Below are positions 13,421 through 62,767 of a DNA stretch of 64,000 nt, in pieces. The notes beneath the pieces are model-generated. The model saw only the letters and a list, made by a program, of their open reading frames with translations, made no database searches and had not been told where the DNA came from. Made by a program: the position numbers and the translations under genes. Each line of letters opens with the position of its first letter. The first letter of the stretch is position 1. This DNA is from a virus, in IMG/VR virus record IMGVR_UViG_3300010883_000003, positions 32,001 to 96,000 of that record, one strand, 5' to 3'.

Positions 13421-13454
13421 TATAGTTAAGAAATGAAACAGGAGATAATCACAA

Positions 13455-40882: not shown

Positions 40883-40885
40883 AGA

Positions 40886-43061: not shown

Positions 43062-43065
43062 AAAA

Positions 43066-43497: not shown

Positions 43498-44193
43498 GTG
43501 AAAAAAGTAGAGCTTTATGAAGATGGTATTGGCGCAGTTGAGTATGTTGAGCATATGGGCTCTGATTTAACCATAGTCAATAGCGCCCGCGTTTCTTTTG
43601 GGAAGCATAAAGAAACGTTAGATGAGAAAGACGAAAAGCTTATCAAGTATCTTGTTAATCATAAGCACACTAGCACTTTCGAACATAACGTCGTAACTTT
43701 TCGCTTTGTAGTTCCGCTCTTTATAAGGAGCCAACATCACAGACATCGTACTTGGAGCTATAACGAGATTAGTAGAAGATACACTGACTTTGATTTAAGA
43801 TTTTACGAACCCAAAGAGTTTAGAACTCAACACAAGAGTAATCGACAAGCTTCCAATCTTTCAGATTTAATAAATCCAGATATGTCTATGGGCACTGAAG
43901 CAAACTTTTCTGCATCATACATGGTTGAAAGTCACCACAAACAATCGCTACACATCTATAATAGACTCATCGAAGAAGGAGTCTGCAGAGAGCAAGCTAG
44001 GGGAGTTCTTCCACAAAATCTCTATACAGAGTATTACGGTACTTGCAATCTTTCAAATCTTTTAAAATTTATTGAGCTACGTACGCATACAGGAGCTCAG
44101 TGGGAAATACAACAGGTAGCGAACGCCTGCATGGACATAGCTGAATCACTCTGGCCGACAGCTGTAGGCACCTATAGAAAATCGAGAAAATGA
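43498..44193 (+). CDS. thyX: flavin-dependent thymidylate synthase
   Basis: IVNSARVSF, HTSTFEH, RHRTWSYNEISRRY, REQARGVLP, LR...AQWEI; GTG start. Confidence 0.95.
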   Translation: MKKVELYEDGIGAVEYVEHMGSDLTIVNSARVSFGKHKETLDEKDEKLIKYLVNHKHTSTFEHNVVTFRFVVPLFIRSQHHRHRTWSYNEISRRYTDFDLRFYEPKEFRTQHKSNRQASNLSDLINPDMSMGTEANFSASYMVESHHKQSLHIYNRLIEEGVCREQARGVLPQNLYTEYYGTCNLSNLLKFIELRTHTGAQWEIQQVANACMDIAESLWPTAVGTYRKSRK

Positions 44194-45117: not shown

Positions 45118-45483
45118 ATGAAAGACCGTCTTGGTGAAATCTTTGCATTACGTGAAGAATTCATGCGTAGAATCAATAAGAGCATCCCTGGCGCGTATCC
45201 AGAAGAATGGCCAATTGATCTAACAGTTAAATCGAACCAAAAAGATGTTAGGGAACTCGCTTTTCGCGGGATCGAAGAGCTCTTTGAAGCGCTTCTTCAT
45301 CTTAAGAATTGGAAAGATCATCGCACCGGTACAGGTGAGTTTGACAGGGCTGAGTTCCTGGAAGAGATGATCGATGCCTACAAGTACTTTACAGCGATTT
45401 TAGTTCTTACTGGTGTTGATAGCGAAGAGTTTTTTAACGCTTACAAGAAGAAGCATGACGTAATCTGTTCAAGGCTTGAATAA
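45118..45483 (+). CDS. all-alpha NTP pyrophosphohydrolase (MazG/dimeric dUTPase/T4 gp56 dCTPase-like)
   Basis: EELFEAL..LKNWKDH and EEMIDAYKYF (ExxE...EExxD), EFFNAY.KK. Confidence 0.75.
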   Translation: MKDRLGEIFALREEFMRRINKSIPGAYPEEWPIDLTVKSNQKDVRELAFRGIEELFEALLHLKNWKDHRTGTGEFDRAEFLEEMIDAYKYFTAILVLTGVDSEEFFNAYKKKHDVICSRLE

Positions 45484-46585: not shown

Positions 46586-49500
46586 ATGAGCAAATCACTT
46601 ATCACCCCACCGAATAAGTTCATTTCCCTACATTCGCATGACGGATTCAGCACTTTTGATGGACTTGGATATCCACAAGAGCATATCGATTATGTCATTG
46701 AGAATGGTATGGACGGCTGGTGTCTCACAAACCACGGTCATATGAACTCGTTTGGTCATGCATTTCTACATGCTGAGAAGATCCAGAAAAGAGGTGGCTT
46801 GTTTAAGTTCGTTCCAGGATGTGAAATGTATGTCCATCCTGATCTTGATGCGTGGAAGCTCGACATGGAGATTAATCAGGCTGCCAAGAAAGGTGATAAA
46901 GAGTCTCTTAGAATTCTTCGTGCCCAACGTGAAGCAATTGCAACTCCCTTAACGGCTATCACCGACGGAGATGATGAGATTGTAGATATCGGAAAGTCTG
47001 AAGTAGGTCTCACGGTGGAGAATGAGGAAGAGACTAAGTCTGGAAAATTTTATGACCCGATTAAGCGCCGCCACCACTTGGTTGTTCTTCCAAAAACGTC
47101 TATTGGTTTACAGCGGCTATTTCATCTTGTCAGTAGAGGGTACAGAGAGGGCTTCTATCGCTTTCCCCGTATTGACTATAAGATGTTAAGGGAAGCAGCT
47201 GAGGGTGGCCATCTGATGGTATCAACAGCTTGTATCGGTGGCCCAATAGCATACGAGGTGTTTAAGCACGCTCAACAAGTGGAATTTGATGAGCTAAAGC
47301 ATAATCTAATGGATGATGAGTCGTTTCGGTCTAAGGTTATGACTGGTGTAGGTAATGCATATCAAGGTCTCGTAGATGCTGTTGGGATTGATGATGTACA
47401 TCTAGAGATACAATTTAATAAGCTTCCCGCTCAGCACCTTGTGAACCGTGCAATTATTGAATTTGCAAATAGCAACGGTTTAAATGACAAGATAGTTGTA
47501 ACTACCGACTCACATTATGCTCGCCCAGAGCATTGGCGTGAGCGTGAGCTATACAAGAAGTTAGGCTGGTTGAACTATAAAGAATTTGACCCCTCCAAGC
47601 TGCCACAATCAAGAGAGGATCTTAAGTGCGAGCTGTATCCGAAGAATGCTCACCAGCTTTGGGATACATATCTTGAGACCACTGAGGATATGTCATTCTA
47701 TAATGACGAGGTTGTGAAAGCAGCCATGGAATTGCCACATCAGATTGTCCATGAAAAGATTTCTGCGATTGTTCCTGACCGTACGATGAAACTACCTTCG
47801 TACGTTGTTCCTGAGGGAATGACGGATGATAAGGCCTTGCTTGAAGCATGTAAGAAAGGACTAGTTTATCGTGGTCTTGCCGATGACCCGAAGTACGTCG
47901 AAAGAATAAAGCATGAGCTCAAGATCATCAAGGATAAGAAGTTCTCCAGATACTTCCTAACAATGGAGGCAATCATTAAAATCGCCAAGAAAGCTATGCT
48001 TGTCGGTCCAGGCCGTGGGTCTGCCGCTGGTAGTCTCGTTGCGTATGTCCTCAGGCTTACCGATGTTGACCCGTTCGAGTATGACCTCATGTTCGGTCGC
48101 TTTCTAAATCCGTCTCGAGAAGGTGCTCCGGATATCGACACCGATGTAGGTGATCGAGACATGCTTATTAATATGATGAAAGACAAGTGGGGCGATGAGA
48201 ACATCATTCCAATCTCTAACTACAATACATTCAAACTCAAGTCACTTGTTAAAGATATTTCTCGCTTCTACGGCATCCCATATACCGAAGTGAATAAGGC
48301 ATTAGCGTCTGTCGAGGATGACGTAAAGCGCGCGGTCTTTAAGCAGGGGACAGATAAGAACTTGTTCGTACTGTTATACGAGGATGCTATGTCACACTCA
48401 AAGGTGTTTAGAGAATTTATCGAGTCTCATCCAGAAGTAGCCGCCCCGATTCAGGTTCTGTTTAAGCAGAATAAGGCTCTTGGTCGTCACGCTGGAGGTG
48501 TAGTTGTCGCGGAAGATATAGCTGAAAGGATGCCGCTGATCAAGGCTCGAGGCGAGTTACAAACACCTTGGGCGGAGGGTATGAACTATAAGCATCTTGA
48601 GACATTCGGATGGATTAAGTTTGACCTCCTCGGCTTGGAAACACTAAGGGTGATCCAGCGTACTATTGAGTTAATCCTACAAAGAAAAGAAGGTATTGAA
48701 AATCCATCGTTTGAGCAAGTCTATGACTGGTTTAATAACAACATGGATCCAAAAGTACTTGATATGGATGATCAGCATGTATACGAGCACGTCTACGCTA
48801 AGGGTCGCTGGGCTGGAATCTTTCAGCTTGCTGGTCGAGGTGCACAAAACTTATTCAAGAGAGCCAAGCCAAAGAGCATCATCGATATTGCAACGCTAAC
48901 GTCAATTTATCGTCCGGGCCCACTTACTGCGAAGGTTGATAAGCTCTACATCGATGCGAAGAATAACCCTGATGACATTGATTATGGTCACCCGTTAATT
49001 AAAGAGGTGCTAGAAGAAACATACGGCTTGATTGTATTCCAAGAGCAGATCATGAAGCTATGCTCTGTGGTGGCTGGCTTCCCTGAGGAGGAAACAGATA
49101 CGGTTAGACGTAGTATTATGAAGCGTAAAGCTTCCGAAGCAGCAGAGTCGCTAGCTAAGGCTAGGGCAATCAAAGAGAAGTTCGTAGCTGGCTCTGTAAA
49201 GAACGGTGTTGACGCTCAGTTAGCCGATGACCTATATGAAAAGATTCTATTCTTTGCAGGGTATGGGTTTAATAAGTCTCATGCCGTGTGTTACGCGATT
49301 GATTCATATTACTGCGCTTGGTTGTTAACTTACTTCGAGGAAGAGTGGTTATGCGCATATCTTGAAGCAATGTCAGGTAACGATAAGAAGCGAGCTAAGG
49401 CTTTCGCTGAAGTAAAGGCTCTTGATTATAGGGTTGTACCACTTGATATTAATTATGCCACGAAGAACTGGACTATTCTTGAAGGTAAGAAGTTCATGCC

Positions 49501-50200
49501 GTCGCTCTTATCATGTAAGGGTATCGGTGAGTCAGCGGTCGATGAGCTTGTTGCGAATAGACCGTATGAAAGTGTTAATGACTTGTTGTGGACAGACGAA
49601 GGTAAGTGGAGGCATTCAAAATTCAATAAGCGCGCTATGGAAGCATTAATCAACATCAGGGCGTTTGAGTCAATGGATTTAGTTGGTAAAGATAAGACTT
49701 TCGAGAGCTACAAGCACATGCATGAAGTTATTATTAATAAGCAAAATGATATTAAGAAGTGGACCAAGAGAGATCCGCAACGTGGAAAGAACAACTACAA
49801 TGAGCTGCTGTTAGAGTCGCAAGGTATCGGACCATGGTCTCGCCGCGAGATGGTTGAAAATAGCGTAAAGCATTTTGGATCGTTTAACGCATCGACTCTT
49901 GTAAGCGAAGAAATACAAGAAAGACTAGCAGCAAAAGATGTACGTTGTATTGATGAAATTGACGGACATGATGTATACTGGTTCTTGGTATCTGATGTCA
50001 AGGCAAAGCTTACGAAAAACAAAAAGCCATATCTTCTGGTTACAGCAACAGGACTGGGAGGTAAAAACTTTAGAATGTTTTGTTGGGGATGGGATGGACA
50101 AACTGAACTTCCGCTATACAGCTTATGCTTGGCAGAGATTAAGAAAACAGACTTTGGATTCCAAACTTCTATGAGTAAAGTCAAGCTTCTTCGTATATGA
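46586..50200 (+). CDS. dnaE: DNA polymerase III alpha subunit (family C)
   Basis: PHP domain LHSHDGFSTFDG, TNHG, GCE, TDSHY; GPGRGSAAGSL, RFLNPSR..PDIDTD, HAGG, KFDLLGL, GIFQL, YRPGPL, FQEQIM, YGFNKSHA; C-terminal OB fold. Confidence 0.96.
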   Translation: MSKSLITPPNKFISLHSHDGFSTFDGLGYPQEHIDYVIENGMDGWCLTNHGHMNSFGHAFLHAEKIQKRGGLFKFVPGCEMYVHPDLDAWKLDMEINQAAKKGDKESLRILRAQREAIATPLTAITDGDDEIVDIGKSEVGLTVENEEETKSGKFYDPIKRRHHLVVLPKTSIGLQRLFHLVSRGYREGFYRFPRIDYKMLREAAEGGHLMVSTACIGGPIAYEVFKHAQQVEFDELKHNLMDDESFRSKVMTGVGNAYQGLVDAVGIDDVHLEIQFNKLPAQHLVNRAIIEFANSNGLNDKIVVTTDSHYARPEHWRERELYKKLGWLNYKEFDPSKLPQSREDLKCELYPKNAHQLWDTYLETTEDMSFYNDEVVKAAMELPHQIVHEKISAIVPDRTMKLPSYVVPEGMTDDKALLEACKKGLVYRGLADDPKYVERIKHELKIIKDKKFSRYFLTMEAIIKIAKKAMLVGPGRGSAAGSLVAYVLRLTDVDPFEYDLMFGRFLNPSREGAPDIDTDVGDRDMLINMMKDKWGDENIIPISNYNTFKLKSLVKDISRFYGIPYTEVNKALASVEDDVKRAVFKQGTDKNLFVLLYEDAMSHSKVFREFIESHPEVAAPIQVLFKQNKALGRHAGGVVVAEDIAERMPLIKARGELQTPWAEGMNYKHLETFGWIKFDLLGLETLRVIQRTIELILQRKEGIENPSFEQVYDWFNNNMDPKVLDMDDQHVYEHVYAKGRWAGIFQLAGRGAQNLFKRAKPKSIIDIATLTSIYRPGPLTAKVDKLYIDAKNNPDDIDYGHPLIKEVLEETYGLIVFQEQIMKLCSVVAGFPEEETDTVRRSIMKRKASEAAESLAKARAIKEKFVAGSVKNGVDAQLADDLYEKILFFAGYGFNKSHAVCYAIDSYYCAWLLTYFEEEWLCAYLEAMSGNDKKRAKAFAEVKALDYRVVPLDINYATKNWTILEGKKFMPSLLSCKGIGESAVDELVANRPYESVNDLLWTDEGKWRHSKFNKRAMEALINIRAFESMDLVGKDKTFESYKHMHEVIINKQNDIKKWTKRDPQRGKNNYNELLLESQGIGPWSRREMVENSVKHFGSFNASTLVSEEIQERLAAKDVRCIDEIDGHDVYWFLVSDVKAKLTKNKKPYLLVTATGLGGKNFRMFCWGWDGQTELPLYSLCLAEIKKTDFGFQTSMSKVKLLRI

Positions 50201-50253: not shown

Positions 50254-51273
50254 ATGCACTTAGGTCGATACAAAAACTTTACAGAATGCTATTTAGGCCT
50301 TCTAGACAAAGTTATGAATGAGCCCCAATACGAGTCCGCACCCAGGGGTCAGAATATCAAGGAGATCTTAGGCGCATCATTTACGATTGATAACCCTCGA
50401 GATCGAATTCCATATGTAGTGGCAAGAAAGTTTGGAATGAGCTATATGGTTGCTGAGCTGGTTTGGTATCTGTCCGGAAACAACAGGACTGACTGGATAT
50501 CTAAGTACTCTGCGTTTTGGAAGAATATTAGTGATGATGGTATCACCGCAAACTCGGCATACGGCGCGCGTCTATTCAAAAGACATTCTTCAATTGCTCA
50601 AGGAAGATTCACACAGCTAGAATATGTGGTTAATGAATTAAAGAGTGATCCAGATTCTCGGCGTGCCATAATGCATCTTAGAGTACCTGACGATTCTATT
50701 GACGCAAAGCTTGATGTCCCATGTACACTGGCGCTACAATACTTCATAAGAGACGGTGAGCTACATCAGGTAGTTAATATGAGAAGCTCTGATTTAGTTT
50801 TCGGAATTGCATATGACGTTCCTGCATTCACAGTATTCCAGGAAATGATCGCGAATGAGTTAAATGTAGGGCTAGGAAGTTACACACATGTTAGCAATTC
50901 CTTACACATTTATGAGACTCATTTTGATATGGTCAATAAAATACTGGAGCCTGATAATATCGACAAGTCGATAAATTTACATCAGACACACGGCCCGATG
51001 CCATCACTTCCTGGATCTATCGATCAAACGGCTACTGACGTAGATAGAGTCTTTGCGTTTGAGGGAGATCTACAGACTGATGAGTCATTTGAAGCTGTAT
51101 TAAATACTTTGCAGCGCTGGTACCATGATTATGGCTCTTCATACTTTTACGATTGGGCAAAGGTCTTAGCTTCCTCAAGACTAAGAAAGCTTGGACTAAA
51201 AGCAGACGCGAATAAAACACTTACAACAACAAAATTCACGGGATACTCGTTTAACGCTAAGAGGAAAAATTGA
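50254..51273 (+). CDS. thymidylate synthase-fold enzyme, predicted dCMP hydroxymethylase (T4 gp42-like)
   Basis: AEL.WYLSG, NSAYG, DSRRA, catalytic PCT, MRSSDLVFGIAYD (Asp at the ThyA Asn177 position), SLHIYE.H. Confidence 0.8.
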   Translation: MHLGRYKNFTECYLGLLDKVMNEPQYESAPRGQNIKEILGASFTIDNPRDRIPYVVARKFGMSYMVAELVWYLSGNNRTDWISKYSAFWKNISDDGITANSAYGARLFKRHSSIAQGRFTQLEYVVNELKSDPDSRRAIMHLRVPDDSIDAKLDVPCTLALQYFIRDGELHQVVNMRSSDLVFGIAYDVPAFTVFQEMIANELNVGLGSYTHVSNSLHIYETHFDMVNKILEPDNIDKSINLHQTHGPMPSLPGSIDQTATDVDRVFAFEGDLQTDESFEAVLNTLQRWYHDYGSSYFYDWAKVLASSRLRKLGLKADANKTLTTTKFTGYSFNAKRKN

Positions 51274-52415
51274 TGCAGCAAGAATATGACTATTTAATCG
51301 TTGGCGCCGGCTTATTTGGCGCTACATTTGCAAGAGAAATGACAGATGCTGGATATAAATGTCTTGTTATAGACAAACGCGAACACATTGGTGGAAATGT
51401 ATATTCAGAAAAGCGTAATGGTATCGATGTTCATGTCTATGGCGCCCACATCTTTCATACGAATAATGACGGGATCTGGAACTACGTAAATCGATTTGCA
51501 ACTTTTAATAACTACATTAATAAACCAAAGGTGAGATTTGGGGACAAGATTTTTTCGTTTCCGATTAACTTAATGACACTTCACCAGCTGTGGGGTGTTA
51601 CTTCGCCCGCAGAAGCAGAGGCAAAGCTTAAGGAAGTCCGTATTCCTTGTGAAAATCCAGACAATCTTGAAGACTGGATTCTGTCACAGGTCGGTAGGGA
51701 AGTTTATGAAACTTTCATTAAGGGTTATACGATGAAGCAATGGCAGCGTGATCCTAAGGAGCTGCCTGCATCTATTATTAAGCGATTACCCATTAGAATG
51801 GTGTTTGAAGAGAACTACTTTTTTGATAAGTACCAAGGTATTCCTGTAGAAGGCTATACAGCGATGGTTGATAACATGCTTGACGGTATTACGGTAAAAA
51901 CGGGAATAGATTACTTTGCTGATAAAGAACACTGGAATGGTCTTGCAAACAAGATTATATTTTCTGGAAAGATTGACGAGTATTTTGACTTTCGCTTTGG
52001 TGAACTCGAGTATAGAACACTACGTTTTGAACACGAAGAACTAGAAGGTGATTTTCAGGGCAACGCTGTTATAAACTATACACATCCTGACACACCGTTT
52101 ACTCGTATTCTGGAGCATAAGCATTTCCAGCCTCAAACAGCCGGTAAGATTAATAACACTATAATCACCAGAGAATATTCTGATGAGTATAAGAGGGGTA
52201 AGACGCCCTATTATCCGATTAATGACGACAAGAATACCAAGATGTACAAAAAGTATGAGCACCTTGCTAAGAATGAAGGTGGCGTAATTTTTGGTGGTCG
52301 ATTATCTGAATACAAGTATTATGATATGCGTCAAGTTATTGGATCTGCGCTCGTAAAAGCTAAAAGAGAGCTTGAAAACCAGGCAGAAATAGGTTATAAT
52401 AGTCTTACTGATTAA
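51273..52415 (+). CDS. glf: UDP-galactopyranose mutase
   Basis: IVGAGLFGA, HIGGN.Y, YGAHIFHT, YQGIP..GYT, L.YR.L.F, TRI.EHKHF, PYYP, GRL.EYKYYDM; TGATG coupling to the upstream gene. Confidence 0.95.
   Translation: MQQEYDYLIVGAGLFGATFAREMTDAGYKCLVIDKREHIGGNVYSEKRNGIDVHVYGAHIFHTNNDGIWNYVNRFATFNNYINKPKVRFGDKIFSFPINLMTLHQLWGVTSPAEAEAKLKEVRIPCENPDNLEDWILSQVGREVYETFIKGYTMKQWQRDPKELPASIIKRLPIRMVFEENYFFDKYQGIPVEGYTAMVDNMLDGITVKTGIDYFADKEHWNGLANKIIFSGKIDEYFDFRFGELEYRTLRFEHEELEGDFQGNAVINYTHPDTPFTRILEHKHFQPQTAGKINNTIITREYSDEYKRGKTPYYPINDDKNTKMYKKYEHLAKNEGGVIFGGRLSEYKYYDMRQVIGSALVKAKRELENQAEIGYNSLTD
52372..52400 (+). promoter_or_regulatory. internal sigma70-type promoter upstream of the glycosyltransferase
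   Basis: TTGAAA 52372-52377, 17 nt, TATAAT 52395-52400, inside the 3' end of glf. Confidence 0.65.
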
Positions 52416-52425
52416 GGAGAGCAAT

Positions 52426-53481
52426 ATGAAAGTACTTTATAGTTTTTGGGGGTTTATTACTCCTCTTGAAAAAAATAGCATTGTCGATACGCCTGATGGA
52501 GAGAGAGGCAATCGAGTTGACTGGGTCAATGAACTTCTTAAGCGCGGACATACACCTATTCAGCTTCAAAAAATGAGGGATGATGAACAGTATCCGGGTG
52601 TTGAGTATGATGCCTCTGGGTACCCGGATGGTGATGTGTTATATGTTGAGTGGCGTTGGCCCACATATAAGAATTCTGGTGAGCATGCTGTAGAACCTGA
52701 TTATAATAGACAATGCGCAGTGCTAGATTATTATCATGACCAAGGCATTCCGATTGTAATTGTAGACGGTGATCTTAAGATGACACCTGAAGAAGAACTT
52801 AGGTGGCCAAACGCTATCTTAGCTGATGCGTGTGTAAACCCTCAGCACCAGACGCGTAAGAGGATTACGATCCCATGGTGCAATTACATGAAGCGTTATT
52901 TTGACCCTGTTGAGTATTCATACAACTACACTTACGTCGGTAATAATTACGAGCGTGAAGACCCTTTCGCGAAATACTACACAGGTCCAAGCGCTGCTTT
53001 ACGCTCCCAAGGCATCCAGACTATGATTTACGGAAACTGGCTTAGCAAATCTCCTGAGAGAATTGATCCAGCCGTCTTGCTAGCTCAAACACCTAGCGTA
53101 GCTTTTGGCCCTCGGCTAGCGTACAAAGACATTTTCAAGGCTCTAAATGAGTCGATCGCTGTTACTCATATTACAAAACCTTCGTATACTCCTTACGGAA
53201 ATATTACAGGCAGATTTTTTGAAGCAATCAAGAGTAACGTCCCGGCGCTGGTACCAGTAGAGTTTCAACACGCTGTTCCAGTGGGACTAGCAGATAAGTC
53301 ACTGCTGGTAGAGAGTACCGAAGATGTTGTTAGAAAAGTTAAATGGTTAACTACACTGGACGCGTCATCACGTAAAGCTTTAGTCGATGCCCAGGAAGAG
53401 GCTCTGAGGACAGTGATTAATCCTTCACCTGAATATAGGACCGATCTGCTAGAACACATTCTAGGGGACTACAGAGCATGA
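52426..53481 (+). CDS. GT-B glycosyltransferase resembling T4 DNA beta-glucosyltransferase
   Basis: 351 aa; YVGNNYERE, GIQTMIYGN, NITGRFFEAIKSNVPALVPVEF and LVESTEDVVRKVKWL align by eye with T4 BGT segments recalled from memory. Confidence 0.7.
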   Translation: MKVLYSFWGFITPLEKNSIVDTPDGERGNRVDWVNELLKRGHTPIQLQKMRDDEQYPGVEYDASGYPDGDVLYVEWRWPTYKNSGEHAVEPDYNRQCAVLDYYHDQGIPIVIVDGDLKMTPEEELRWPNAILADACVNPQHQTRKRITIPWCNYMKRYFDPVEYSYNYTYVGNNYEREDPFAKYYTGPSAALRSQGIQTMIYGNWLSKSPERIDPAVLLAQTPSVAFGPRLAYKDIFKALNESIAVTHITKPSYTPYGNITGRFFEAIKSNVPALVPVEFQHAVPVGLADKSLLVESTEDVVRKVKWLTTLDASSRKALVDAQEEALRTVINPSPEYRTDLLEHILGDYRA

Positions 53482-53996
53482 AGATTGCGTTCATAGGTCC
53501 TGACATGACAGGTAAGTCTAACATTGCAAAAGAGCTTTCAAACCGATTAGAGCTCCCGGTTTTTAAGAACTCTGGAGAATGGAAAACACAGCTGGATAGC
53601 GCTGACTACTTCTTGAACTTGCTTAAGTTCGGCGGTCCGTTTCTCATGGATTTTATAACCCAAACAAACATCAGTGTTATACTTGATAGATTTTATCCTT
53701 GTGAGCTAGTATACGCCGACGCGTTTAATAGGGAAACAGATATGTCTGCAATAGCATGGATGGATAGAGAATTTACAAAAGCTGGTGGAAAGTTTATCGT
53801 CTGCTTAAGGAAAGACTACAGCGGTTTGGTCGATGATCAGTATCCTGACCAACTGCCAACATCTATGCTGGAGAAACTAGATGAACTATATCGTACATTT
53901 TGTGATACCACAGAATGTGAATATCTTGTTTTGGAAACTGATGACTTTGATTTAGACAGACAGGTTTCAGATATTATTAAGTTTTTAGAAAAATAA
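53478..53996 (+). CDS. P-loop dNMP kinase (thymidylate kinase-like; candidate modified-dCMP kinase)
   Basis: GPDMTGKS Walker A and ILDRFYPCELVY; ATGA overlap with the GT gene. Confidence 0.8.
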   Translation: MKIAFIGPDMTGKSNIAKELSNRLELPVFKNSGEWKTQLDSADYFLNLLKFGGPFLMDFITQTNISVILDRFYPCELVYADAFNRETDMSAIAWMDREFTKAGGKFIVCLRKDYSGLVDDQYPDQLPTSMLEKLDELYRTFCDTTECEYLVLETDDFDLDRQVSDIIKFLEK

Positions 53997-54010
53997 GGAG
54001 AGTATTTATT

Positions 54011-55015
54011 ATGACGTTTCGTAGAGCATTAGTCACTGGGTGTTGCGGGTTTATTGGCGCGCACGTTACCCGCTTGTTGGTAAACGAAGGATGGTATGTA
54101 GAGGGAGTAGATGACTTATCAAATGGAGATCTCGCTGCCATCTCAGATCTTAAGTTCCGCGCAGTCCATGAAGGATTGCTTGGTATGCTTGAGAAAACAG
54201 ACTTAAAGGCCGAAGCTGGCGGGCTTATGGTCGTCACCGGAGATTTTGCTTCTCCAGCTATGTTACAAAGGGTCGAAGAGGGTAGATACGATGTTATTTT
54301 TCATCTAGCGGCAAATCCAAGAGTTGAGTTTTCTGTCAAGCATCCTGCCTTGACAACTCATCATAATATTCAGAAGACTGTCGAACTTATGACTTCTGCA
54401 AGAGATAAGATAGATAGATTTGTCTTTGCATCTTCGTCCGCATGCTATGGGAATGTTGAAGTCTTACCAACTGTTGAGGGAAGTGTTACTGATAATCCTA
54501 CGTCACCGTATGGTCTTCAAAAGCTAGTAATAGAGCAATTCGGTAAGCTATACGATAGTTTATATGATATGGATTTCGTGGCTCTTAGGTTCTTTAATGC
54601 GTATGGACCAGGCCAAGATGGCACAAGCCCGTATTCTACAGCGATCTCCGCGTGGTGCACTCGTCTTAACAATGGTGAGCCTTTGCGTAGCGACGGCGAC
54701 GGCCAACAAACTAGAGACATGGTCTATGTTGAAGATTTAGCAAGTGCTATGTTGTCGGTCGCTAATCATCCAGAGCGTATTGGGTTCGATGTATTCAACG
54801 TTGGAAATGGAGAGTCTTTTAAAAATAAGCAGATATTAAGCTACCTTGTGGATAAATTTCCAAAAGCACAGATTGACTATGCTCCCGAGAGACCAGGCGA
54901 TGTAAAGCATACTCTGGCCTCAATCTCTAAAATTCATGACGCCATCGGCTGGAGTCCAGAAGTACAGTTTTGGGATGGCCTAAATAGAACGCTAGCTTGG
55001 TGGAAGCTTCTATGA
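54011..55015 (+). CDS. NAD-dependent nucleotide-sugar epimerase (GalE/WbpP-like)
   Basis: VTGCCGFIG, DDLSNG, HLAA, FASSSACYG, SPYGLQK (YxxxK), LRFFNAYGP, QTRD.VYV.D, RPGDV. Confidence 0.9.
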   Translation: MTFRRALVTGCCGFIGAHVTRLLVNEGWYVEGVDDLSNGDLAAISDLKFRAVHEGLLGMLEKTDLKAEAGGLMVVTGDFASPAMLQRVEEGRYDVIFHLAANPRVEFSVKHPALTTHHNIQKTVELMTSARDKIDRFVFASSSACYGNVEVLPTVEGSVTDNPTSPYGLQKLVIEQFGKLYDSLYDMDFVALRFFNAYGPGQDGTSPYSTAISAWCTRLNNGEPLRSDGDGQQTRDMVYVEDLASAMLSVANHPERIGFDVFNVGNGESFKNKQILSYLVDKFPKAQIDYAPERPGDVKHTLASISKIHDAIGWSPEVQFWDGLNRTLAWWKLL

Positions 55016-55446
55016 ACAGATGCAGCTGGCCAGGTACTTCTTCTAAAGAAGAAAAGCCTTGGGGACATGAAATATCATGGACCGGTTTATTTCACGGGAA
55101 AGAAATTTTTATTAAATCTGGGTTTAGGACAAGTCTAAAGTTTAACGTACAAAAAAATGAATTACTATACGTCCAGTCAGGAAGAGTTATCGCCGAATAT
55201 GCAGATGAAGGTCACTTTAAAGACTCAAATAAATGTCCAGCTAGTGCAAGAGAACTGCTTCCGGGGGATATACTAAATGTCCAAGCCGGCTGTCCCTATC
55301 GTCTATCTGCGCTGGATAACAGTATTGTTTTCGAAATATCTGACCGCGGAGCTTTCCGCAGAGTTATAATTGAAGATGATTACGGTAGAGAATCTAAGGA
55401 CTCGAGCCAAGAGAAACTAATATTTAAGCCTCTAATAGGGCAATGA
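55012..55446 (+). CDS. cupin, mannose-6-phosphate isomerase C-domain-like; metal His residues apparently lost
   Basis: EEKPWGHE, RTSLKF, KNELLYVQSG, PYRLSA, IEDDYGR; ATGA overlap. Confidence 0.7.
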   Translation: MNRCSWPGTSSKEEKPWGHEISWTGLFHGKEIFIKSGFRTSLKFNVQKNELLYVQSGRVIAEYADEGHFKDSNKCPASARELLPGDILNVQAGCPYRLSALDNSIVFEISDRGAFRRVIIEDDYGRESKDSSQEKLIFKPLIGQ

Positions 55447-55480: not shown

Positions 55481-56377
55481 ATGACTGTAATGGATCCAAA
55501 TTCGGTTAACGCCGTGATATACCACGCTGACTGTACTGACGGTTTTGGCGCCGCATATTCTGCATGGAAGTGTTTAGGAAATCGAGCAGAGTATTACCCG
55601 TGTAAGCACGGAACAACGCCTCCTGATGTTAAAGGAAAGAATGTCGTTATACTAGATTTTTCTTTTGATAATAAAACTACAAAGAAAATGATTGAGGATG
55701 CTGCCGCCTTAATAGTAATTGACCATCATAAGTCTGCAGTCGTTGAACTACATGACATACCAAACACGTTATTTGATATGACAAAGTCTGGAGCAATTCT
55801 TTCATGGGAATGGTTCCATCCGGGTAAAGAGCCTCCGAAGTTCATTCGATATATTCAAGATAGGGACCTGTGGAAGTGGGAACTAGAGTATTCTAAAGAG
55901 TTTTCCGCCGCATTTGATATGATTCAATTTGAGTTCGAGGAATTTGAAAAGTTCGAAGATGACTCTGTATTTGATGATGCCTGTAAGCGCGGCTCGTACA
56001 TTCTTGCGTATAGTAAGACTGTGGTAAAGAAAGTTTGCGAAAAAGCCCAGCCTCGAAAAATGGACGGAAAAGACGTGCTAGTCGTAAATGCTTCTCATTG
56101 GATGTCTGAAATCGGCGCTCGTCTTGCTCCTGATTGTGACTTTGCCTTGATTTGGTATTGGGATCATGAGTCTAAAAACACTAAGGTAAGTTTAAGGGCG
56201 TTCCATGACGCCGCAGACGTTTCTGAGATCTCCAAAAGGTTCGGCGGCGGCGGCCACAGGAAGGCAGCTGGTTTTCAGCTGTCCGCAGATAAGCATATCG
56301 AGGATATTTTTGACCAACCAAAAAAGGCGTCTAGGTCAAGACGCGCTTCTACGAAAAGTAAGGATTCGAATGAGTAA
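55481..56377 (+). CDS. DHH/DHHA1 phosphoesterase
   Basis: YHADCTDGF, ILDF, IDHH, SGA.L.W, IQDRDLW, SLR, FGGGGH..AAGF. Confidence 0.88.
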   Translation: MTVMDPNSVNAVIYHADCTDGFGAAYSAWKCLGNRAEYYPCKHGTTPPDVKGKNVVILDFSFDNKTTKKMIEDAAALIVIDHHKSAVVELHDIPNTLFDMTKSGAILSWEWFHPGKEPPKFIRYIQDRDLWKWELEYSKEFSAAFDMIQFEFEEFEKFEDDSVFDDACKRGSYILAYSKTVVKKVCEKAQPRKMDGKDVLVVNASHWMSEIGARLAPDCDFALIWYWDHESKNTKVSLRAFHDAADVSEISKRFGGGGHRKAAGFQLSADKHIEDIFDQPKKASRSRRASTKSKDSNE

Positions 56378-56909
56378 GATTTATTCAACAATTATGGCCG
56401 ATCCACCGTGGTACCAACGCGGAGGCGGAAAATCAAAGCGCGGCGCGGATAGGCATTATGACATTTTAAAAGAGCATGAAATTAAAGCAGTGATGTCTAA
56501 AATGTTACAAGGCAAAGTTGCTGAAAACGCTCATATGTATATGTGGGTTGCAAATAATCACCTTGCTGAAGGTTTACGAATTCTAGAACATCTAGAGTTC
56601 AGGTATATAACCAACTTAGTATGGGCAAAGCCAAGCTTTGGACTAGGGAGATATTTTCGCGGACAGCACGAGATATGTTTATTTGCCACAAGAGGTAGAG
56701 GGTTTTCTGTTCGATCTGAAGCTAATAATGTTTCTACACTCATCGGTGGTAGTATGATCAAACCGACCAAGCACAGCACAAAGCCGCAAGAAATATACGA
56801 CTTAGTAGAATCTAGAAGCAGAGGAAGCTATCTTGAACTGTTTGCCAGAAACAGCCGACCCGGCTGGGATTGCTTGGGTAACGAAGCACCTAGCGAGGAA
56901 AATGAATGA
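56370..56909 (+). CDS. MT-A70 family N6-adenine methyltransferase
   Basis: IMADPPW, MYMW, W.K...GLG.YFRGQHE.CLFA.RG, HS.KP, YLELFAR..RPGW..LGNE. Confidence 0.9.
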   Translation: MSKIYSTIMADPPWYQRGGGKSKRGADRHYDILKEHEIKAVMSKMLQGKVAENAHMYMWVANNHLAEGLRILEHLEFRYITNLVWAKPSFGLGRYFRGQHEICLFATRGRGFSVRSEANNVSTLIGGSMIKPTKHSTKPQEIYDLVESRSRGSYLELFARNSRPGWDCLGNEAPSEENE

Positions 56910-57316
56910 GGGCATCATGGGATGACGTCTGGATGGACTTCGCTTATCTAATAGCTAAGCGCTCCTATGACCCAAGATATCAGGTCGGATCTGTTATTGT
57001 TACCGATACTAATACACAGGTCTTGGCAGTAGGATATAACGGCAATTACTCTGGTGGCCCTAATGAGGTAGAGTCTACGTTACCAGGTCAATCAGGAATG
57101 ATACATGCAGAAATTAACGCATTGATAAAACTTGATTATAATAACCCTAATAAGAAAATTATGTACCTTACGCTTAGTCCGTGTAGAGGCTGCGCAAAGG
57201 CAATTATAAACGGGGGAATATCTGAAGTGGTTTATCATAAACAATATAGAGATACCTCTGGTATAGAGCTACTACAGTCAGCCGGAATAAAAGTTCGTCA
57301 GCACTGTATGGAGTAA
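56906..57316 (+). CDS. dCMP deaminase-like zinc deaminase
   Basis: IAKRS.D...QVG, GYNG, HAEINA, TLSPCRGCAK. Confidence 0.9.
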   Translation: MRASWDDVWMDFAYLIAKRSYDPRYQVGSVIVTDTNTQVLAVGYNGNYSGGPNEVESTLPGQSGMIHAEINALIKLDYNNPNKKIMYLTLSPCRGCAKAIINGGISEVVYHKQYRDTSGIELLQSAGIKVRQHCME

Positions 57317-57373
57317 GACTCCTTGCGCGTGTATATTTAATGATGATACTAACTTTATGTGGAGTTTAATAGA

Positions 57374-58780
57374 ATGAAAAAAGCCTTAATAGAAAGCATA
57401 TCTAAGCAGTGTATAAAGCTCGTTTATAGATCTAGATTAAATGATCTCACTACAGCAGCACTTAGCGAAGGAATGACAGATGGAATTCTTTTACAGGAAG
57501 CGTTTACAAGCGAGGACGCGAACGAGTTAGAGGCTGCCACGAAAGAAATGTCTGCGGTAATTGGTTCTTTAGAAAATCGTCTTGCTGATGCCGGCGAAGG
57601 CTGGGCACCGGTTATAGACTCTTTAAAGTCAGCAGCTGGCAATTTAGATAGTAAAGCAATCGCTCAAATGGCTCTTAGCGGCGAAACCAAAAAATTAGCT
57701 AAGGCGTCCACTGAGTTCACAAAGTCTTTGCAAAGCGTAGCGGCAGAAACGGCTGCAGTCCTTGCAGCCGTAGATGGCATAAAAAAGAACTTATCGAATT
57801 TTGAGAAAGATGTTGGTGATAAAGGTGGTGAGACCATCGCAGCGTTATCGGACTCAATCGAGAAGTTCCCAGATATCTCTAAGCTAGATAAAGGTATAAG
57901 CAGCGTGTATCAGATACCAAAGTGGTTTGATTCCGCTTGGGCTGACGGCTCGAAGGCAGCCGAGAGCGAAACAGAGGGGGGCTTTTTTAAGAAAGCAATG
58001 GCATTTGTTGGTGGTATGTTTAAAGCCGATAAGACTGGCCGCTTAGTTGATGCGAAAGTGTTAGCTGATGCTGTTAAGGCAACGTCTTTCACCGCGTTAA
58101 TGGATCTGGATGTGCAAGGTGAAGTAGCAGCCTTAACTCAAGGCGCTGAAACTGCTGGTACCGAGTCAACAGAACTGGCTGCCGCCGGCGCTGGTGGTGC
58201 TGAAGGTAGCGAGGGTGGTGAAGACGACGCCGGCGGCAACGAAACCGAAGACGGCGTTACTGTTGCTACAGAAGAAGAAGCAGAAGAAGAGCAAGCTGCC
58301 GCTGAAGAAGAATTAACTGCCGCCGCTGAAGAAGTTGTCGCAGAGCCTGAGTCACCAGGCGTAGCTATCGCAAACGCTCTTGATACTTGGGCTTCCTCGT
58401 TATCTAAGTCTTCACAGTCTGCATTAGCAGCAAAGAAGAGGTTAGACAGTCTTAAGACAGGTGTTGCTGCCTCTCTAGAGAAAGCAGCTGCTGCGGTTGA
58501 ATCTGAGGTTGCTGGTGCTGTACAGGCTTGGCGAGCAGAAAACGAAGAAACGCTAATGAAGAGTAAAAGGTTCGCCAAGAAGAATTTTGATGCGCTTGAA
58601 AAAGTCATTCCTCAAATTGCGTCAGTTATGTTAAAGAAAACATCTGAGACTAAGATAAAAATGACGAAAGGCATGGTACGTAAGTCTGTCTTTAATTACC
58701 TCGATAAGCAATTTGCGAATGAAGGTATCTTATTTGAGTCAAAAAGATGGCAGTCTCTAGCAGGTATGGGGAGAAAATAA
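57374..58780 (+). CDS. Ala/Glu-rich hypothetical protein, candidate internal head protein
   Basis: GGAG SD before ATG 57374; C-terminal FESKRWQSLAGM resembles the scaffold C-terminus. Confidence 0.7.
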   Translation: MKKALIESISKQCIKLVYRSRLNDLTTAALSEGMTDGILLQEAFTSEDANELEAATKEMSAVIGSLENRLADAGEGWAPVIDSLKSAAGNLDSKAIAQMALSGETKKLAKASTEFTKSLQSVAAETAAVLAAVDGIKKNLSNFEKDVGDKGGETIAALSDSIEKFPDISKLDKGISSVYQIPKWFDSAWADGSKAAESETEGGFFKKAMAFVGGMFKADKTGRLVDAKVLADAVKATSFTALMDLDVQGEVAALTQGAETAGTESTELAAAGAGGAEGSEGGEDDAGGNETEDGVTVATEEEAEEEQAAAEEELTAAAEEVVAEPESPGVAIANALDTWASSLSKSSQSALAAKKRLDSLKTGVAASLEKAAAAVESEVAGAVQAWRAENEETLMKSKRFAKKNFDALEKVIPQIASVMLKKTSETKIKMTKGMVRKSVFNYLDKQFANEGILFESKRWQSLAGMGRK

Positions 58781-59188
58781 ATGTCTTCTACTAATACAAG
58801 GTTTCTATCCGAAATGCTACGAAACCAATATGTCGGTCGTCTTAACGAAGTTATAAAAGAAGCTGATGTATTCGATGATGAAGGCAATATGATATTGTCA
58901 CCTGACTTAAAAGTGAAACACCGTGACTCTGGTTATGAGTATACTATAGATCATGTTGAAGGTGATACCGACAATGAGATACAAATTTATCTTAGGTCAC
59001 CTGAGTCACCGAGAGTTCACCCGGCCCCTGAAGAAAAGTCGCTGTTAGGCGAACCGCGACAGGAAGATATACTAGGTGAGCAAGATCCCGCAGCAAATAT
59101 AGAGGAAGAGTTACCAAGCGAAGATCAAGAAGATGTGATCTTTGTCATCAACCAACAAGAATTTGAAAAAGAGTATGAGGTAGATTAA
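58781..59188 (+). CDS. acidic hypothetical protein
   Basis: 135 aa, abuts both neighbours. Confidence 0.7.
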   Translation: MSSTNTRFLSEMLRNQYVGRLNEVIKEADVFDDEGNMILSPDLKVKHRDSGYEYTIDHVEGDTDNEIQIYLRSPESPRVHPAPEEKSLLGEPRQEDILGEQDPAANIEEELPSEDQEDVIFVINQQEFEKEYEVD

Positions 59189-59916
59189 TGTCAACAATCA
59201 GTGATAAAGAGATTATGAAAGTTATTAGCGAAACGTTAGGTGTCGATGACATGTCTTCTCGTAAGAGCAAGCCTTTAAATGAGGCATACGTACTTGAGCC
59301 TAAGAAGTATGACATTCAAACCGATATCTTAAGCCAAAAAGCAATAAGTGCAAATATCGAAGACTTTAAGTCTGCTGTTGATATAGTAAATGAAATATCT
59401 GCGAAGCTTGATTCTGTTGATAGAAGCAATTCTAATCCAAAAGACGCTGCATTCCGGGAGCTAAAATCAGCAGAAGCCTACAATCTAAACTATGTTTTTC
59501 TAACGTCTCTTCATTTTGATAATATCGCAGACCCTACCTCAAAAGTTATGATGGATTCATTGTCATACATGAGATTGTCAAGAGACTTCGGAACGTTTGA
59601 AGATTGGCAGAAAGATTTTATTGCTTGTGCAATGGGGGCTCGTAATGGATATGTTGCGACTGTGTTCAACGGATCGCTGAACCGCTATATGAATGTCATG
59701 GTCGATGAAAATTCTTCTGGTCCTATGATGAACTGTATTCCCGTAATATGCCTGTGTGTTAAAGATAGCTTTTATTTCCGTGATTACTTAAATGACCGTA
59801 AAGCCTACATCTTCGCAATGATGAAAGAGTTAAGGTGGTCTTTAATTGAGGAAAGATTTAAGCGCGCCGACAAGCTTTCAAAAATCATGTCTAGGCCATT
59901 AGGAGATAACTCATGA
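59188..59916 (+). CDS. Fe/Mn superoxide dismutase-like protein, metal ligands degenerate
   Basis: LHFDNI, RDFGTFEDWQKDF, PVICLCVKDSFYFRDYLNDRKAYI...L.W..IEERF match the SOD C-domain, but DxWEH is replaced by CVKDS. Confidence 0.7.
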   Translation: MSTISDKEIMKVISETLGVDDMSSRKSKPLNEAYVLEPKKYDIQTDILSQKAISANIEDFKSAVDIVNEISAKLDSVDRSNSNPKDAAFRELKSAEAYNLNYVFLTSLHFDNIADPTSKVMMDSLSYMRLSRDFGTFEDWQKDFIACAMGARNGYVATVFNGSLNRYMNVMVDENSSGPMMNCIPVICLCVKDSFYFRDYLNDRKAYIFAMMKELRWSLIEERFKRADKLSKIMSRPLGDNS

Positions 59917-60536
59917 AAAGAGAACAACTAAAGAATTATTTTAGGAAGCAATACAGCTTGCTAGCAGAGCAAGATGAAGAAGATCCATTCGCGACAGATG
60001 ATGCTGCAGCCGACGAAGAGCCAGATGATGCTGCAGCCGACGAAGAGCCAGCCGACGATACTGGTGAAGAAGGCGAAGACGAAGACGAAGGCGAAGGCGA
60101 AGATGAAGATGAAGTAGAGGTTGATGAGGATGATGAACAGCGTTTTCAAAAGTCTATAGATGATCAACTCCAGGCACTCCTAATAGACATTGAGGCTGAC
60201 TCTATCAAGTCTGCAGTAGTACAGCAAGAAAGCTATAGCCTAAAGCAAATGTATATAAATGAGTCTGGCGATGTACCTATCGATACAGATAAGTTTGCAT
60301 CTGAGGTTGCCAGGCTAATATTAAATTTTGACGCTTTCCTTGATCTTGAAACGATGCTATTATCTAAAGTTAGAAGCTTTCTGGTAGACAAGCATGGCGA
60401 AGAAGCTGCTGACGAAGTTGAGAAATTATTATCCGACCGTCATGATCTTAAGCGCAGAGAAGAAGTCGAAGAAGCAGATGATATAGAAGAGCAGGTTCCT
60501 ATAGCTGTAGGCGCTACTCCAGGGGCGGGTGTGTGA
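59913..60536 (+). CDS. highly acidic hypothetical protein
   Basis: 207 aa with an Asp/Glu tract; N-terminal QLKNYF...LLAE. Confidence 0.7.
   Translation: MKREQLKNYFRKQYSLLAEQDEEDPFATDDAAADEEPDDAAADEEPADDTGEEGEDEDEGEGEDEDEVEVDEDDEQRFQKSIDDQLQALLIDIEADSIKSAVVQQESYSLKQMYINESGDVPIDTDKFASEVARLILNFDAFLDLETMLLSKVRSFLVDKHGEEAADEVEKLLSDRHDLKRREEVEEADDIEEQVPIAVGATPGAGV
59997..60050 (+). repeat. exact 27-bp tandem duplication (DDAAADEEP x2)
   Basis: gatgatgctgcagccgacgaagagcca at 59997-60023 and 60024-60050. Confidence 0.95.
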
Positions 60537-61062: not shown

Positions 61063-61106
61063 CGTTCATAATAATTAGAGTAAAATCACTTGCGGAGAAA
61101 ATAGAG

Positions 61107-61724: not shown

Positions 61725-61744
61725 ATTAAAATTGGAGAATAACC

Positions 61745-62722: not shown

Positions 62723-62767
62723 GATAAAACTGCTTTTACCTTATACTTTTCACGCGTAGAATACTAT

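Follow-up and report, generated by a model that had tools for sequence, protein, structure and literature searches.

A candidate pathway for galactofuranosyl-5-hydroxymethylcytosine DNA in an uncultured marine phage

A sequence-only reading of a 64,000-nucleotide stretch of viral DNA (hereafter the window; bases 32001-96000 of a 116,688-bp IMG/VR virus contig) proposed that six closely packed, partly overlapping genes following dnaE encode a DNA hypermodification pathway, in which a furanose, either galactofuranose (Galf) or arabinofuranose (Araf), is attached to 5-hydroxymethylcytosine (5hmC). Six plus-strand open reading frames (ORFs) are indeed found at 50254-55446, beginning 53 nt past the end of dnaE (46586..50200, plus strand), which itself is a 1204-aa ORF for a DnaE-type replicative DNA polymerase directly upstream of the cluster. 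Both the coordinates and the junctions of the six genes hold (-4, +10, -4, +14 and -4 nt in cluster order, the last gene being read from the ATG at 55012), and GC content, overall and at third codon positions (GC3), is uniform over them. In order, they encode a thymidylate synthase (TS)-fold enzyme, predicted to be a dCMP 5-hydroxymethylase (50254..51273; 339 aa; PF00303, E 2e-35); Glf, a flavin adenine dinucleotide (FAD) enzyme assigned as UDP-galactopyranose mutase (51270..52415; 381 aa; PF03275, E 3.6e-78; PF13450, E 2.4e-20); a glycosyltransferase (GT) with a modelled GT-B fold, predicted to act on 5hmC DNA (52426..53481; 351 aa); a small nucleotide kinase with the P-loop GPDMTGKS, whose predicted substrate is 5-hydroxymethyl-dCMP (5hm-dCMP) (53478..53996; 172 aa); an extended short-chain dehydrogenase/reductase (SDR) of the nucleotide-sugar 4-epimerase class, predicted to convert UDP-glucose (UDP-Glc) to UDP-galactose (UDP-Gal) (54011..55015; 334 aa; PF01370, E 2.6e-48); and a small cupin-like protein (55012..55446; PHROG 7851, E 1.8e-11), whose full ORF (54997-55446) has 149 aa and which, from the ATG at 55012, has 144 aa and a 4-nt ATGA overlap.

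Among solved structures, the closest relatives of the TS homologue are the CMP hydroxymethylase MilA (E 7.4e-43) and the T4 dCMP hydroxymethylase gp42 (E 1.8e-17), with true thymidylate synthases scoring in between, at about 1e-22 to 1e-24. The residues that discriminate between the possible products were read from two alignments (A1 and a 58-sequence MAFFT alignment) with E. coli ThyA, T4 gp42, RL38J1_216 and the SP-10 dUMP hydroxymethylase as controls. According to a recent report (Lee et al., Nucleic Acids Res 2026; PMC13326640), Asp177 (E. coli numbering) selects the cytosine nucleotide (dCMP) over uracil, an acidic residue at position 143 accompanies a hydroxymethyl or other non-methyl product, and Asn169 (D169N) is diagnostic of the TS homologues that make 5-hydroxy-dCMP (5ho-dCMP), namely RB69 gp48, DLP3 gp80 and RL38J1_216. 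The preference of MilA for the ribonucleotide is ascribed in PMC5175136 to Lys and Ala at the positions that are Arg126 and Ser167 in TS and gp42, and the A176S/K133R mutant switches to dCMP. The TS homologue of the window has Cys146, Asp143, Asp169, Asp177, Arg126 and Ser167, and it also conserves Arg166, His207 and Tyr209 together with the catalytic Cys146. The controls behave as published in the same alignment, with L/D/N at positions 143/169/177 in ThyA, D/D/N in the SP-10 enzyme and E/N/D in RL38J1_216. As the TS homologue matches the T4 gp42 pattern at every diagnostic position tested, its product is predicted to be 5hm-dCMP, and not dTMP, 5-hydroxymethyl-dUMP (5hm-dUMP), 5ho-dCMP or 5-hydroxymethyl-CMP (5hm-CMP). 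A MilA-type CMP enzyme was considered and rejected on Arg126 and Ser167. The closest cultured-phage homologue of the window TS enzyme, gp319 of Bacillus phage G (JN638751.1; 38% identity), has the same Asp143, Asp169 and Asp177 and lies near the dCMP deaminase gp317 and gp313, annotated 'alpha glucosyl transferase' (L031:1311-7047), an arrangement that hints at glycosyl-5hmC in phage G as well.

The assignment of Glf is based on the NCBIfam equivalog TIGR00031, which it passes with 366.8 bits against a cut-off of 303.75, on the presence of both the N-terminal FAD-binding Rossmann domain (PF13450) and the GLF domain (PF03275), and on nearly full-length alignments with two mutases of solved structure, 1i8t (E 3.8e-129) and 4mo2 (E 1.6e-124); judged on these matches, it is a genuine UDP-galactopyranose mutase. 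At the positions where 4mo2 has Arg59 and Arg168, which we take to permit the use of UDP-GalNAc (we found no literature confirmation), the window enzyme has His and Lys, the same as 1i8t. The SDR carries epimerase-type motifs (GCCGFIG at residue 10, SSSACYG, and YGLQK at residue 167), with neither the TDE of dehydratases nor the TSE of decarboxylases, and its best solved relatives are 4-epimerases (6dnt, E 3.6e-43; 6wjb; 4zrm; WbgU; WbpP). It scores below the GalE equivalog TIGR01179 (146.2 bits against a cut-off of 262.3) and is thus classed as 4-epimerase-like, with its substrate unproven. As alternatives, a 4,6-dehydratase and a UDP-glucuronate decarboxylase (UXS) were both rejected on the motifs.

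By sequence the GT matches PF13524 only, and that below threshold (E 1.7e-4; 22 bits against a cut-off of 25); a phmmer search against PDB sequences returned nothing meaningful, and the fold predicted from the single sequence was unusable, with a predicted local distance difference test score (pLDDT) of 33. Modeling with 78 homologues gave a GT-B fold of two Rossmann domains (pLDDT 93.1; predicted template modeling score, pTM, 0.90). A Foldseek search with this model placed tll1591 first (2.1e-10) and the T4 beta-glucosyltransferase (BGT) second (E 4.1e-10), and with VIA-align four T4 BGT entries came out on top (1qkj: Z 23.0, root-mean-square deviation 3.6, 307 residues, 16% identity), with model residues 1-344 aligned to BGT 1-351. 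When 48,161 chains were searched without such a preselection, T4 BGT again came nominally first (Z 21.7), in a near tie with other GT-B enzymes. Profile comparison with hhalign depends on the width of the family that is used: the narrow profile (A2) gives a probability of only 50% against T4 BGT, and the wide one (A4; 83 sequences, down to 23% identity) reaches 97.2% (E 3.9e-11) over 214 columns, joining GT residues 108-345 to BGT 130-348. By this match, the C-terminal domain of the GT is taken to be homologous to that of T4 BGT. Arg177, Arg263 and Glu266, which are invariant or nearly so in both A2 and A4, align with BGT Arg195, Arg269 and Glu272, which we take to be ligands of UDP (literature confirmation was not found); the presumed catalytic base of BGT, Asp100, belongs to its N-terminal domain, which lies outside the GT alignment. 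The GT belongs to an uncharacterised phage family distantly related to T4 BGT, for which a search of 1.84 billion proteins gives 463 representatives at E<=1e-3; the GT itself is predicted to be a 5hmC-DNA glycosyltransferase.

The remaining two genes are less easily placed. The kinase matches, weakly, AAA_28 (E 4e-4) and PHROG 761 'thymidylate kinase' (E 3.4e-7), and its six-sequence profile (A3) finds YorR (2axp/3kb2; E 1.1e-6) and deoxyguanosine kinase (E 7.5e-4); with the kinase of Rhizobium phage RL38JI it shares no useful similarity, the profile match being restricted to the P-loop. YorR is also the reported structural match of the DLP3 'nucleotide kinase'. The cupin-like protein has no Pfam match at E<=0.01 (Cupin_1, E 0.23) and no meaningful phmmer match among PDB sequences, in the ESM Atlas it lies nearest to viral clusters of Cupin_2/MannoseP_isomer type, and a conserved His pair was not found across 17 distinct orthologues.

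The arrangement of these genes was compared among 58 IMG/VR loci that encode a relative of the GT, scored by tblastn with the window proteins, with TS homologues counted within 8 kb. Many of these loci are near-duplicates from different samples, so that they represent roughly ten independent architectures and not 58. The GT is covered over at least half its length in 57 of the 58, DnaE lies beside it in 53, and a TS homologue accompanies it in 53; among the five loci lacking the latter, L016, L042 and L061 are truncated, and L057 and L065 are full length. The kinase stands beside the GT in 49 loci, and a dCMP deaminase (46), an epimerase orthologue (42), a DHH phosphoesterase (29), the cupin (24), Glf (20), a nucleoside triphosphate (NTP) pyrophosphatase within 8 kb of the GT (17), a second SDR type (13) and a UXS-like SDR (6) occur less often. 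The complete order dnaE-TS-Glf-GT-kinase-epimerase-cupin-DHH is kept in 17 of the 58 loci, which form the window clade; this order, together with the pairing of GT and TS in 53 loci, indicates that the arrangement is not due to chance. All 53 GT-linked TS homologues have Cys146, Arg126, Ser167, Asp169 and Asp177, with Arg126 and Ser167 invariant in A1 as well; position 143 is Asp in 51 and Asn in two, and Asn169 was found in none of them. The GT family is thus consistently tied to the 5hmC signature of the TS homologue. The cupin gene, wherever it is found, follows the epimerase, in seven loci without Glf, which associates it with the epimerase rather than with Glf.

Glf adjoins the GT-TS pair in 20 loci that belong to three lineages, namely the window clade (17), L022, and L062/L064, so that the linkage of TS, glf and GT expected in related phages under the sequence-only reading is found repeatedly. 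In L022 (L022:5379-10966) the order is UXS-Glf-kinase-GT-epimerase-TS. The extra SDR of this locus aligns with human UXS1, a UDP-glucuronate decarboxylase, at E 8.8e-96, and the enzymes predicted there would constitute a complete phage-encoded route from UDP-glucuronic acid (UDP-GlcA) to UDP-xylose (UDP-Xyl), UDP-L-arabinopyranose (UDP-L-Arap) and UDP-L-Araf, which suggests that the L022 phage carries L-arabinofuranosyl-5hmC and makes the alternative 'Galf or Araf', as originally worded, an apt one. Two 355-aa ORFs upstream of UXS in L022 gave an hhalign probability of <=0.5% against the GT profile. L062 and L064 come from a different, smaller phage type, with a GT 29% and a Glf 33% identical to those of the window and the order DnaB-primase-exonuclease-(unknown)-dUTPase_2-Glf-Tmk-like-GT-TS-deaminase-DnaE; the L062 block (5900-13643) includes a gp56-like dUTPase_2 and a TS homologue with Asp143, Asp169 and Asp177, and it has no epimerase. 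L062/L064 represent an independent association of Glf, GT and hydroxymethylase. The clades without Glf retain the GT, kinase and TS next to other sugar genes, the alternative cassettes being epimerase and cupin only, two SDRs with an unknown 258-aa protein, or UXS without Glf. Such swapping of cassettes is the pattern expected if the adjoining sugar genes feed the GT. A glf gene is also present in T4-like Aeromonas phages (19 records); in Aeromonas phage 25 (NC_008208.1; L032:5992-9263) it is annotated 'hypothetical', and after it come two ORFs of ~350 aa without known function, labelled 'not conserved in 44RR', neither of which resembles the GT (hhalign against its profile again <=0.5%).

Taken together, the TS fold, Glf, the fold of the GT, the class of the epimerase, the hydroxymethylase signature and the GT-TS-kinase linkage are well supported computationally, and we propose a T4-style hypermodification with a different sugar. 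The ThyA-fold enzyme would convert dCMP to 5hm-dCMP, as its active-site residues suggest; the small kinase, together with the host nucleoside diphosphate (NDP) kinase, would bring this nucleotide to the triphosphate, while the upstream NTP pyrophosphatase would clear dCTP and the DnaE polymerase would build 5hmC DNA. For the donor, the SDR epimerase would convert host UDP-glucose to UDP-galactopyranose (UDP-Galp), and Glf would convert the latter to UDP-galactofuranose (UDP-Galf); the identities of both enzymes are well supported, and it is their coupling that we infer. By analogy with T4 BGT and the T4 alpha-glucosyltransferase (AGT), and from the conserved gene linkage, the BGT-related GT-B enzyme would then act post-replicatively on duplex DNA, adding the furanose to the hydroxymethyl group of its 5hmC. 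The product, galactofuranosyl-5hmC DNA, would be resistant to restriction and CRISPR nucleases and distinct from glucosyl-5hmC. That the cluster makes glycosylated 5hmC DNA in some form we regard as very probable; that the sugar attached by the window GT is Galf, we hold to be reasonably probable. Because the full statement, conversion of genomic cytosine to galactofuranosyl-5hmC, requires both, it is only slightly favored. The sugar, its ring form and its acceptor, whether DNA or nucleotide, are what we infer for the window GT. Extended to a clade of marine jumbo phages that carries D-galactofuranosyl-5hmC by means of a new BGT-related GT family swapping its donor cassettes (epimerase; epimerase and Glf; UXS, epimerase and Glf for L-arabinofuranose; two SDRs), the proposal is a tentative one, to which we give somewhat less than an even chance.

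A number of observations weigh against the proposal, in whole or in part. Functions are predicted throughout from sequence, predicted fold and synteny. As a single sequence, the GT has no match to the Pfam BGT family even at E<=10. In the unbiased structural search, T4 BGT is nearly tied with 6kih (21.5), 2gej (21.5) and 6n1x (21.2), with sucrose-phosphate synthase, PimA and BshA all within 1 Z of it, so that the fold alone does not single out BGT; the N-terminal (acceptor) domain lies outside the A4/BGT match. The GT is acidic, with an isoelectric point (pI) of 5.30 against 9.05 for T4 BGT, which argues against DNA binding, although the proposed DNA galactosyltransferase of RL38JI is likewise acidic (pI 5.61). 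Known furanosyltransferases are mostly GT-A enzymes. The assignments of the kinase and of the dCTPase are weak, and the cupin, to which no role is assigned, is the weakest call among the six genes. Of the names given in the sequence-only reading, 'dNMP kinase' and 'cupin' are clearly less secure than the remaining four. Regarding the sugar, Glf is missing from 38 of the 58 loci, so a furanose donor is not a fixed feature of the GT family; seven full loci of the sister clade, with a GT 58-61% identical, keep the GT, the epimerase and the cupin without Glf, so this lineage can work with a non-furanose donor. Moreover, the contig is 37% complete (CheckV), with 63% of the phage genome lying outside it, and relatives have a second sugar island and further GTs elsewhere, so that the product of Glf may serve another transferase. 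These points feed the view that the same 5hmC DNA pathway exists and the sugar added by the GT is not Galf, being either galactopyranose or glucose next to the base, with Glf feeding a second GT, or L-Araf, with Glf acting as a UDP-Arap mutase and the epimerase as a UDP-Xyl 4-epimerase on host UDP-xylose. The L022 locus, where Glf stands with UXS, shows that the Glf-epimerase module can serve a pentose route, and the best relatives of the window epimerase, which is below the GalE cut-off, include UDP-GlcNAc/GalNAc 4-epimerases. Against a sugar other than Galf, Glf is translationally coupled between TS and GT (-4 and +10 nt), and it is so placed in all 17 loci of the clade; the 116.7-kb contig holds a single GT of this family and a single SDR; and the Glf and GT of L062/L064, with no epimerase, fit the use of host UDP-Gal (UDP-Galp to UDP-Galf). 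A survey of UDP-glucose dehydrogenase (Ugd) and SDR genes in five larger relatives points in the same direction, since the 92%-complete relative G001 (GT 83% identical) has neither Ugd nor UXS, and apart from the epimerase of the cluster it encodes no SDRs other than two GDP-sugar enzymes, which indicates that a phage-encoded UDP-Ara route is absent from the window clade. The other GTs of the relatives lie with the two extra SDR genes in a GDP-fucose/sulfotransferase island ~117 kb away. UDP-Galf is, as far as gene content tells, the most economical donor in the window clade, and a sugar other than Galf, the main rival reading, is in our view rather unlikely.

Other readings change the acceptor or the base. 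If the TS homologue and kinase made 5hmC DNA, and Glf, GT, epimerase and cupin decorated instead host envelope glycans or a virion protein, then Glf would keep its usual role in cell-wall or O-antigen synthesis, in line with the familiar view of phage glf as an 'auxiliary metabolic gene', and the acidity of the GT and the equal closeness of its fold to PimA and BshA, GT-B enzymes acting on lipids and small molecules, would fit; the glf of Agrobacterium phage Atu_ph04 has been read in this way, as a host-benefit gene (PMC6630229). We consider this improbable, as the TS homologue and the kinase flank the GT in 53 and 49 of the 58 loci, across very divergent lineages (GT identity down to 23-33%) and inside replication modules, the C-terminal domain of the GT is homologous to a DNA glucosyltransferase, the relatives keep genes of surface-glycan type apart in an island of their own, and the same logic has an experimental basis in RB69 and DLP3 and a proposed counterpart in RL38JI (PMC13326640). 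Hardly more credible is a pre-replicative scheme, for which the sequence-only reading had left room, in which the acceptor of the GT is 5hm-dCMP or 5hm-dCDP and replication draws on nucleotides already glycosylated: the 4-nt overlap of the GT and kinase genes and their adjacency in nearly all loci are in line with it, and an acidic GT suits a small-molecule acceptor better than DNA, yet the replicative DnaE would need to accept a bulky C5 adduct, and the characterised phage base glycosylations cited in PMC13326640 and bioRxiv 2023.12.21.572611 are all post-replicative, on DNA. Finally, the TS homologue might make another base, such as 5-hydroxy-dCMP (RB69/RL38JI), 5hm-dUMP (SPO1/SP-10), 5hm-CMP (MilA) or dTMP. 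The rules for these residues are based on correlation, among the closest homologues in cultured phages several carry the annotation dUMP hydroxymethylase, and the nearest solved relative, MilA, prefers CMP (PMC5175136); however, Asp177 speaks against dUMP, Asp169 against a 5-hydroxycytosine (5hoC) synthase, Arg126 and Ser167 against the MilA ribose pocket (Lys/Ala) and Asp143 against methyl transfer, and dTMP is already provided by ThyX, making this the least credible of the alternatives, and a very improbable one.

The proposed galactofuranosyl-5hmC system resembles, and differs from, several known ones. T4 glucosyl-5hmC has the same predicted base chemistry, with gp42 sharing Cys146, Asp143, Asp169 and Asp177; the gene order polymerase, dCMP hydroxymethylase, beta-gt is the same; BGT is both the nominal best fold match and the homologue of the C-terminal GT domain; and among the window genes there is a dCMP deaminase as well as a dCTPase-like pyrophosphatase. 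T4 takes its UDP-glucose from the host, whereas the window phage encodes Glf and an epimerase for its donor. In addition, its 339-aa hydroxymethylase belongs to the long, MilA-like kind, closer to MilA than to gp42, its kinase is a 172-aa protein similar to YorR and deoxynucleoside kinases (dNK), with no match to T4 gp1 detected, its pyrophosphatase is all-alpha, unlike gp56, its dTMP comes from ThyX, its polymerase is DnaE and not of family B, and its GT is acidic and ~16% identical to BGT. 

RL38JI (Pootjesviridae) is the nearest precedent for the logic of the cluster. As described in PMC13326640, its DNA carries galactose-glucose chains on 5hoC, it encodes Glf (gp84), and the phage mutase is proposed to supply UDP-Galf for the base-proximal galactose. 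It shares with the window a phage Glf (45% identical) and TS, GT and kinase genes in the same order (RL38J1_216, 215, 214; order confirmed). Its TS homologue has Asn169, for 5-hydroxycytosine, where the window enzyme has Asp169; its GT has no detectable similarity to that of the window (RL38J1_215 against the GT profile: hhalign probability 0.1%, BLASTP E 0.18); its glf lies ~60 kb from the TS-GT-kinase genes, and not between TS and GT; and it has three GTs, a mono- to tri-hexose chain and an unrelated phage lineage. The two systems are analogous and not orthologous. In the case of RB69 and DLP3, whose DNA has been proven to carry arabinofuranosyl chains on 5-hydroxycytosine (PMC13326640), the likeness consists of a furanose on a C5-modified cytosine, the logic of TS homologue, kinase and GT-B enzyme, and a phage-encoded supply of sugar nucleotide; they differ in that D-arabinofuranose is derived from pentose phosphates without a mutase, that the acceptor is 5hoC, and that the genome backbone is T4-like. 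In metagenomic clusters of GT and epimerase (bioRxiv 10.1101/2023.12.21.572611), GT activity on 5hmC needs the partner epimerase, and epimerase-dependent GTs place hexose (Hex), N-acetylhexosamine (HexNAc) and hexuronic acid (HexA) on 5hmC made after replication by a C5-methyltransferase and a TET-like dioxygenase; GT-B enzymes there often adjoin TS homologues (~28% of GT-B pathways), and the terms 'mutase' and 'furanos' occur 0 times. PMC3627594 (2013) brings up the mutase as no more than an analogy.

In the literature searched, which did not extend to subscription journals, we found no report of Galf on 5hmC, and the only link between glf and DNA modification was PMC13326640, on 5hoC. The remark in the sequence-only reading that it knew of no Galf-modified DNA base needs to be amended, as that paper already proposes a phage Glf and UDP-Galf for the galactose on 5hoC; with this and the 2023 preprint as precedents, the novelty is narrower than had been claimed, and the system is not categorically new, RL38JI having set the example of TS, GT and kinase combined with Glf. 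The pathway reading is partly supported, in that every computational test agrees with its logic, and what emerges is a real, conserved and apparently undescribed variant, combining T4-like 5hmC, an RL38JI-like furanose supply and a new BGT-related GT family.

Glycosylated cytosines are a main way by which lytic phages escape restriction enzymes and CRISPR nucleases, and they are in turn targeted by type IV restriction and glycosylase defences, so that each new sugar is a new round of this arms race. Galactofuranose is absent from mammals and is known in bacteria from cell walls and O-antigens. If the proposal is true, it would be the first hexofuranose reported on 5hmC and would join glucose and arabinose as a decoration of DNA, on the classic base 5hmC; phage glf genes annotated as host-benefit genes would need to be re-read as DNA-modification genes; and the DNA of abundant marine jumbo phages would behave abnormally in native-DNA sequencing and in restriction-based methods. 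The pathway would then represent a natural platform for glycodiversification, with one base and one GT scaffold, and the 463-cluster BGT-related family with its differing cassettes would be a source of enzymes for labelling 5hmC with sugars other than glucose.

The genes around the cluster, all on the plus strand, include a nucleotide-pool set resembling that of T4. ThyX, a flavin-dependent thymidylate synthase (43498..44193; PF02511 Thy1, E 1.1e-49; PHROG 85, E 4e-63), provides dTMP and thus leaves the ThyA-fold enzyme free for another role, and a dCMP deaminase (56906..57316; PF00383, E 1.7e-20; PHROG 174, E 5.4e-46) is predicted to feed dUMP to ThyX, like T4 Cd. The third member of this set is a small all-alpha NTP pyrophosphohydrolase (45118..45483; PHROG 12184 'nucleotide pyrophosphohydrolase', E 2.8e-14; PHROG 173, E 3.1e-8; Pfam PRA-PH below threshold, E 0.0094). 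As a family search of the contig found neither MazG (PF03819) nor a trimeric dUTPase (PF00692), it is the sole candidate there for a dCTPase, a putative functional analogue of gp56. Behind the cluster follow a DHH/DHHA1 phosphoesterase (55481..56377; PHROG 4771, E 7.6e-77; DHHA1, E 2.5e-6; DHH, E 5.2e-4) and an MT-A70-family DNA adenine methyltransferase (56205..56909; PF05063, E 2.8e-18, ORF residues 60-227; PHROG 359, E 2.6e-43). The ORF of the latter overlaps the end of the DHH gene by ~170 nt; since the Pfam match begins at residue 60, the true start is probably near 56376, past the DHH gene. With that start, this enzyme is likely a second DNA modification, and the phage would hold N6-methyladenine besides modified cytosine. 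A PHROG scan assigned no family to the six ORFs farther downstream (58781-63232), and a match of ORF 57359-58780 to an alpha-xenorhabdolysin subunit was rejected as noise (NCBIfam, E 6e-4; 19 bits against a cut-off of 125). On the other side, before ThyX, the window has a class II-type ribonucleotide reductase with a TSCPD domain (37717-40227) and, at 40280-43497, a ClpP-like protease, an amidase with a peptidoglycan-binding domain, a glutamine-synthetase-like protein and a 4HBT thioesterase.

Given a CheckV completeness of 37% at 116,688 bp, the phage of the window is probably jumbo-sized; relatives with the same cluster span 254-281 kb, one of them being the genome rated 92% complete. Among 50,697 GenBank phage records, neither a megablast match to the cluster DNA nor a tblastn match to the GT was found, and the tblastn matches of DnaE in cultured phages, annotated 'DnaE-like DNA polymerase III alpha', are all below 30% identity; the window virus appears, from these searches, to have no close cultured phage. 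The GDP-sugar island of the 92%-complete relative (L072:2461-11550), upstream of its hypermodification cluster, encodes GT10 and GT11 fucosyltransferase-like proteins, two sulfotransferases, a GDP-fucose-synthase-like SDR, a GDP-mannose 4,6-dehydratase, a DegT aminotransferase and a GT1. It looks like a glycan island and not like a UDP-pentose route, and its content would suit a glycan bearing sulfate and fucose, either on the host or on the virion; in the window phage the corresponding region lies outside the contig. In another relative, G002, the island is larger (L073) and encodes five SDRs besides a UDP-glucose dehydrogenase.

Near-identical DNA occurs in marine and seawater metagenomes, where seven of the 23 listed runs, each from a different one of seven studies, contain half or more of the words sampled. 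A single contig of one marine run (X4) shows an apparent join of 51312 to 55373 that would remove Glf through cupin; it was discarded as evidence of a Glf-less variant, the shorter side of the join having only 22 letters and the flanking tails being long and unlike, and it most likely stems from another organism or a chimera. In a seawater metatranscriptome library (X20), two contigs of 151 nt match the epimerase gene exactly (window 54472-54851), which is too little for a claim of transcription, as carry-over of DNA is possible. Assembled contigs from three marine DNA runs span all 12 kb compared.

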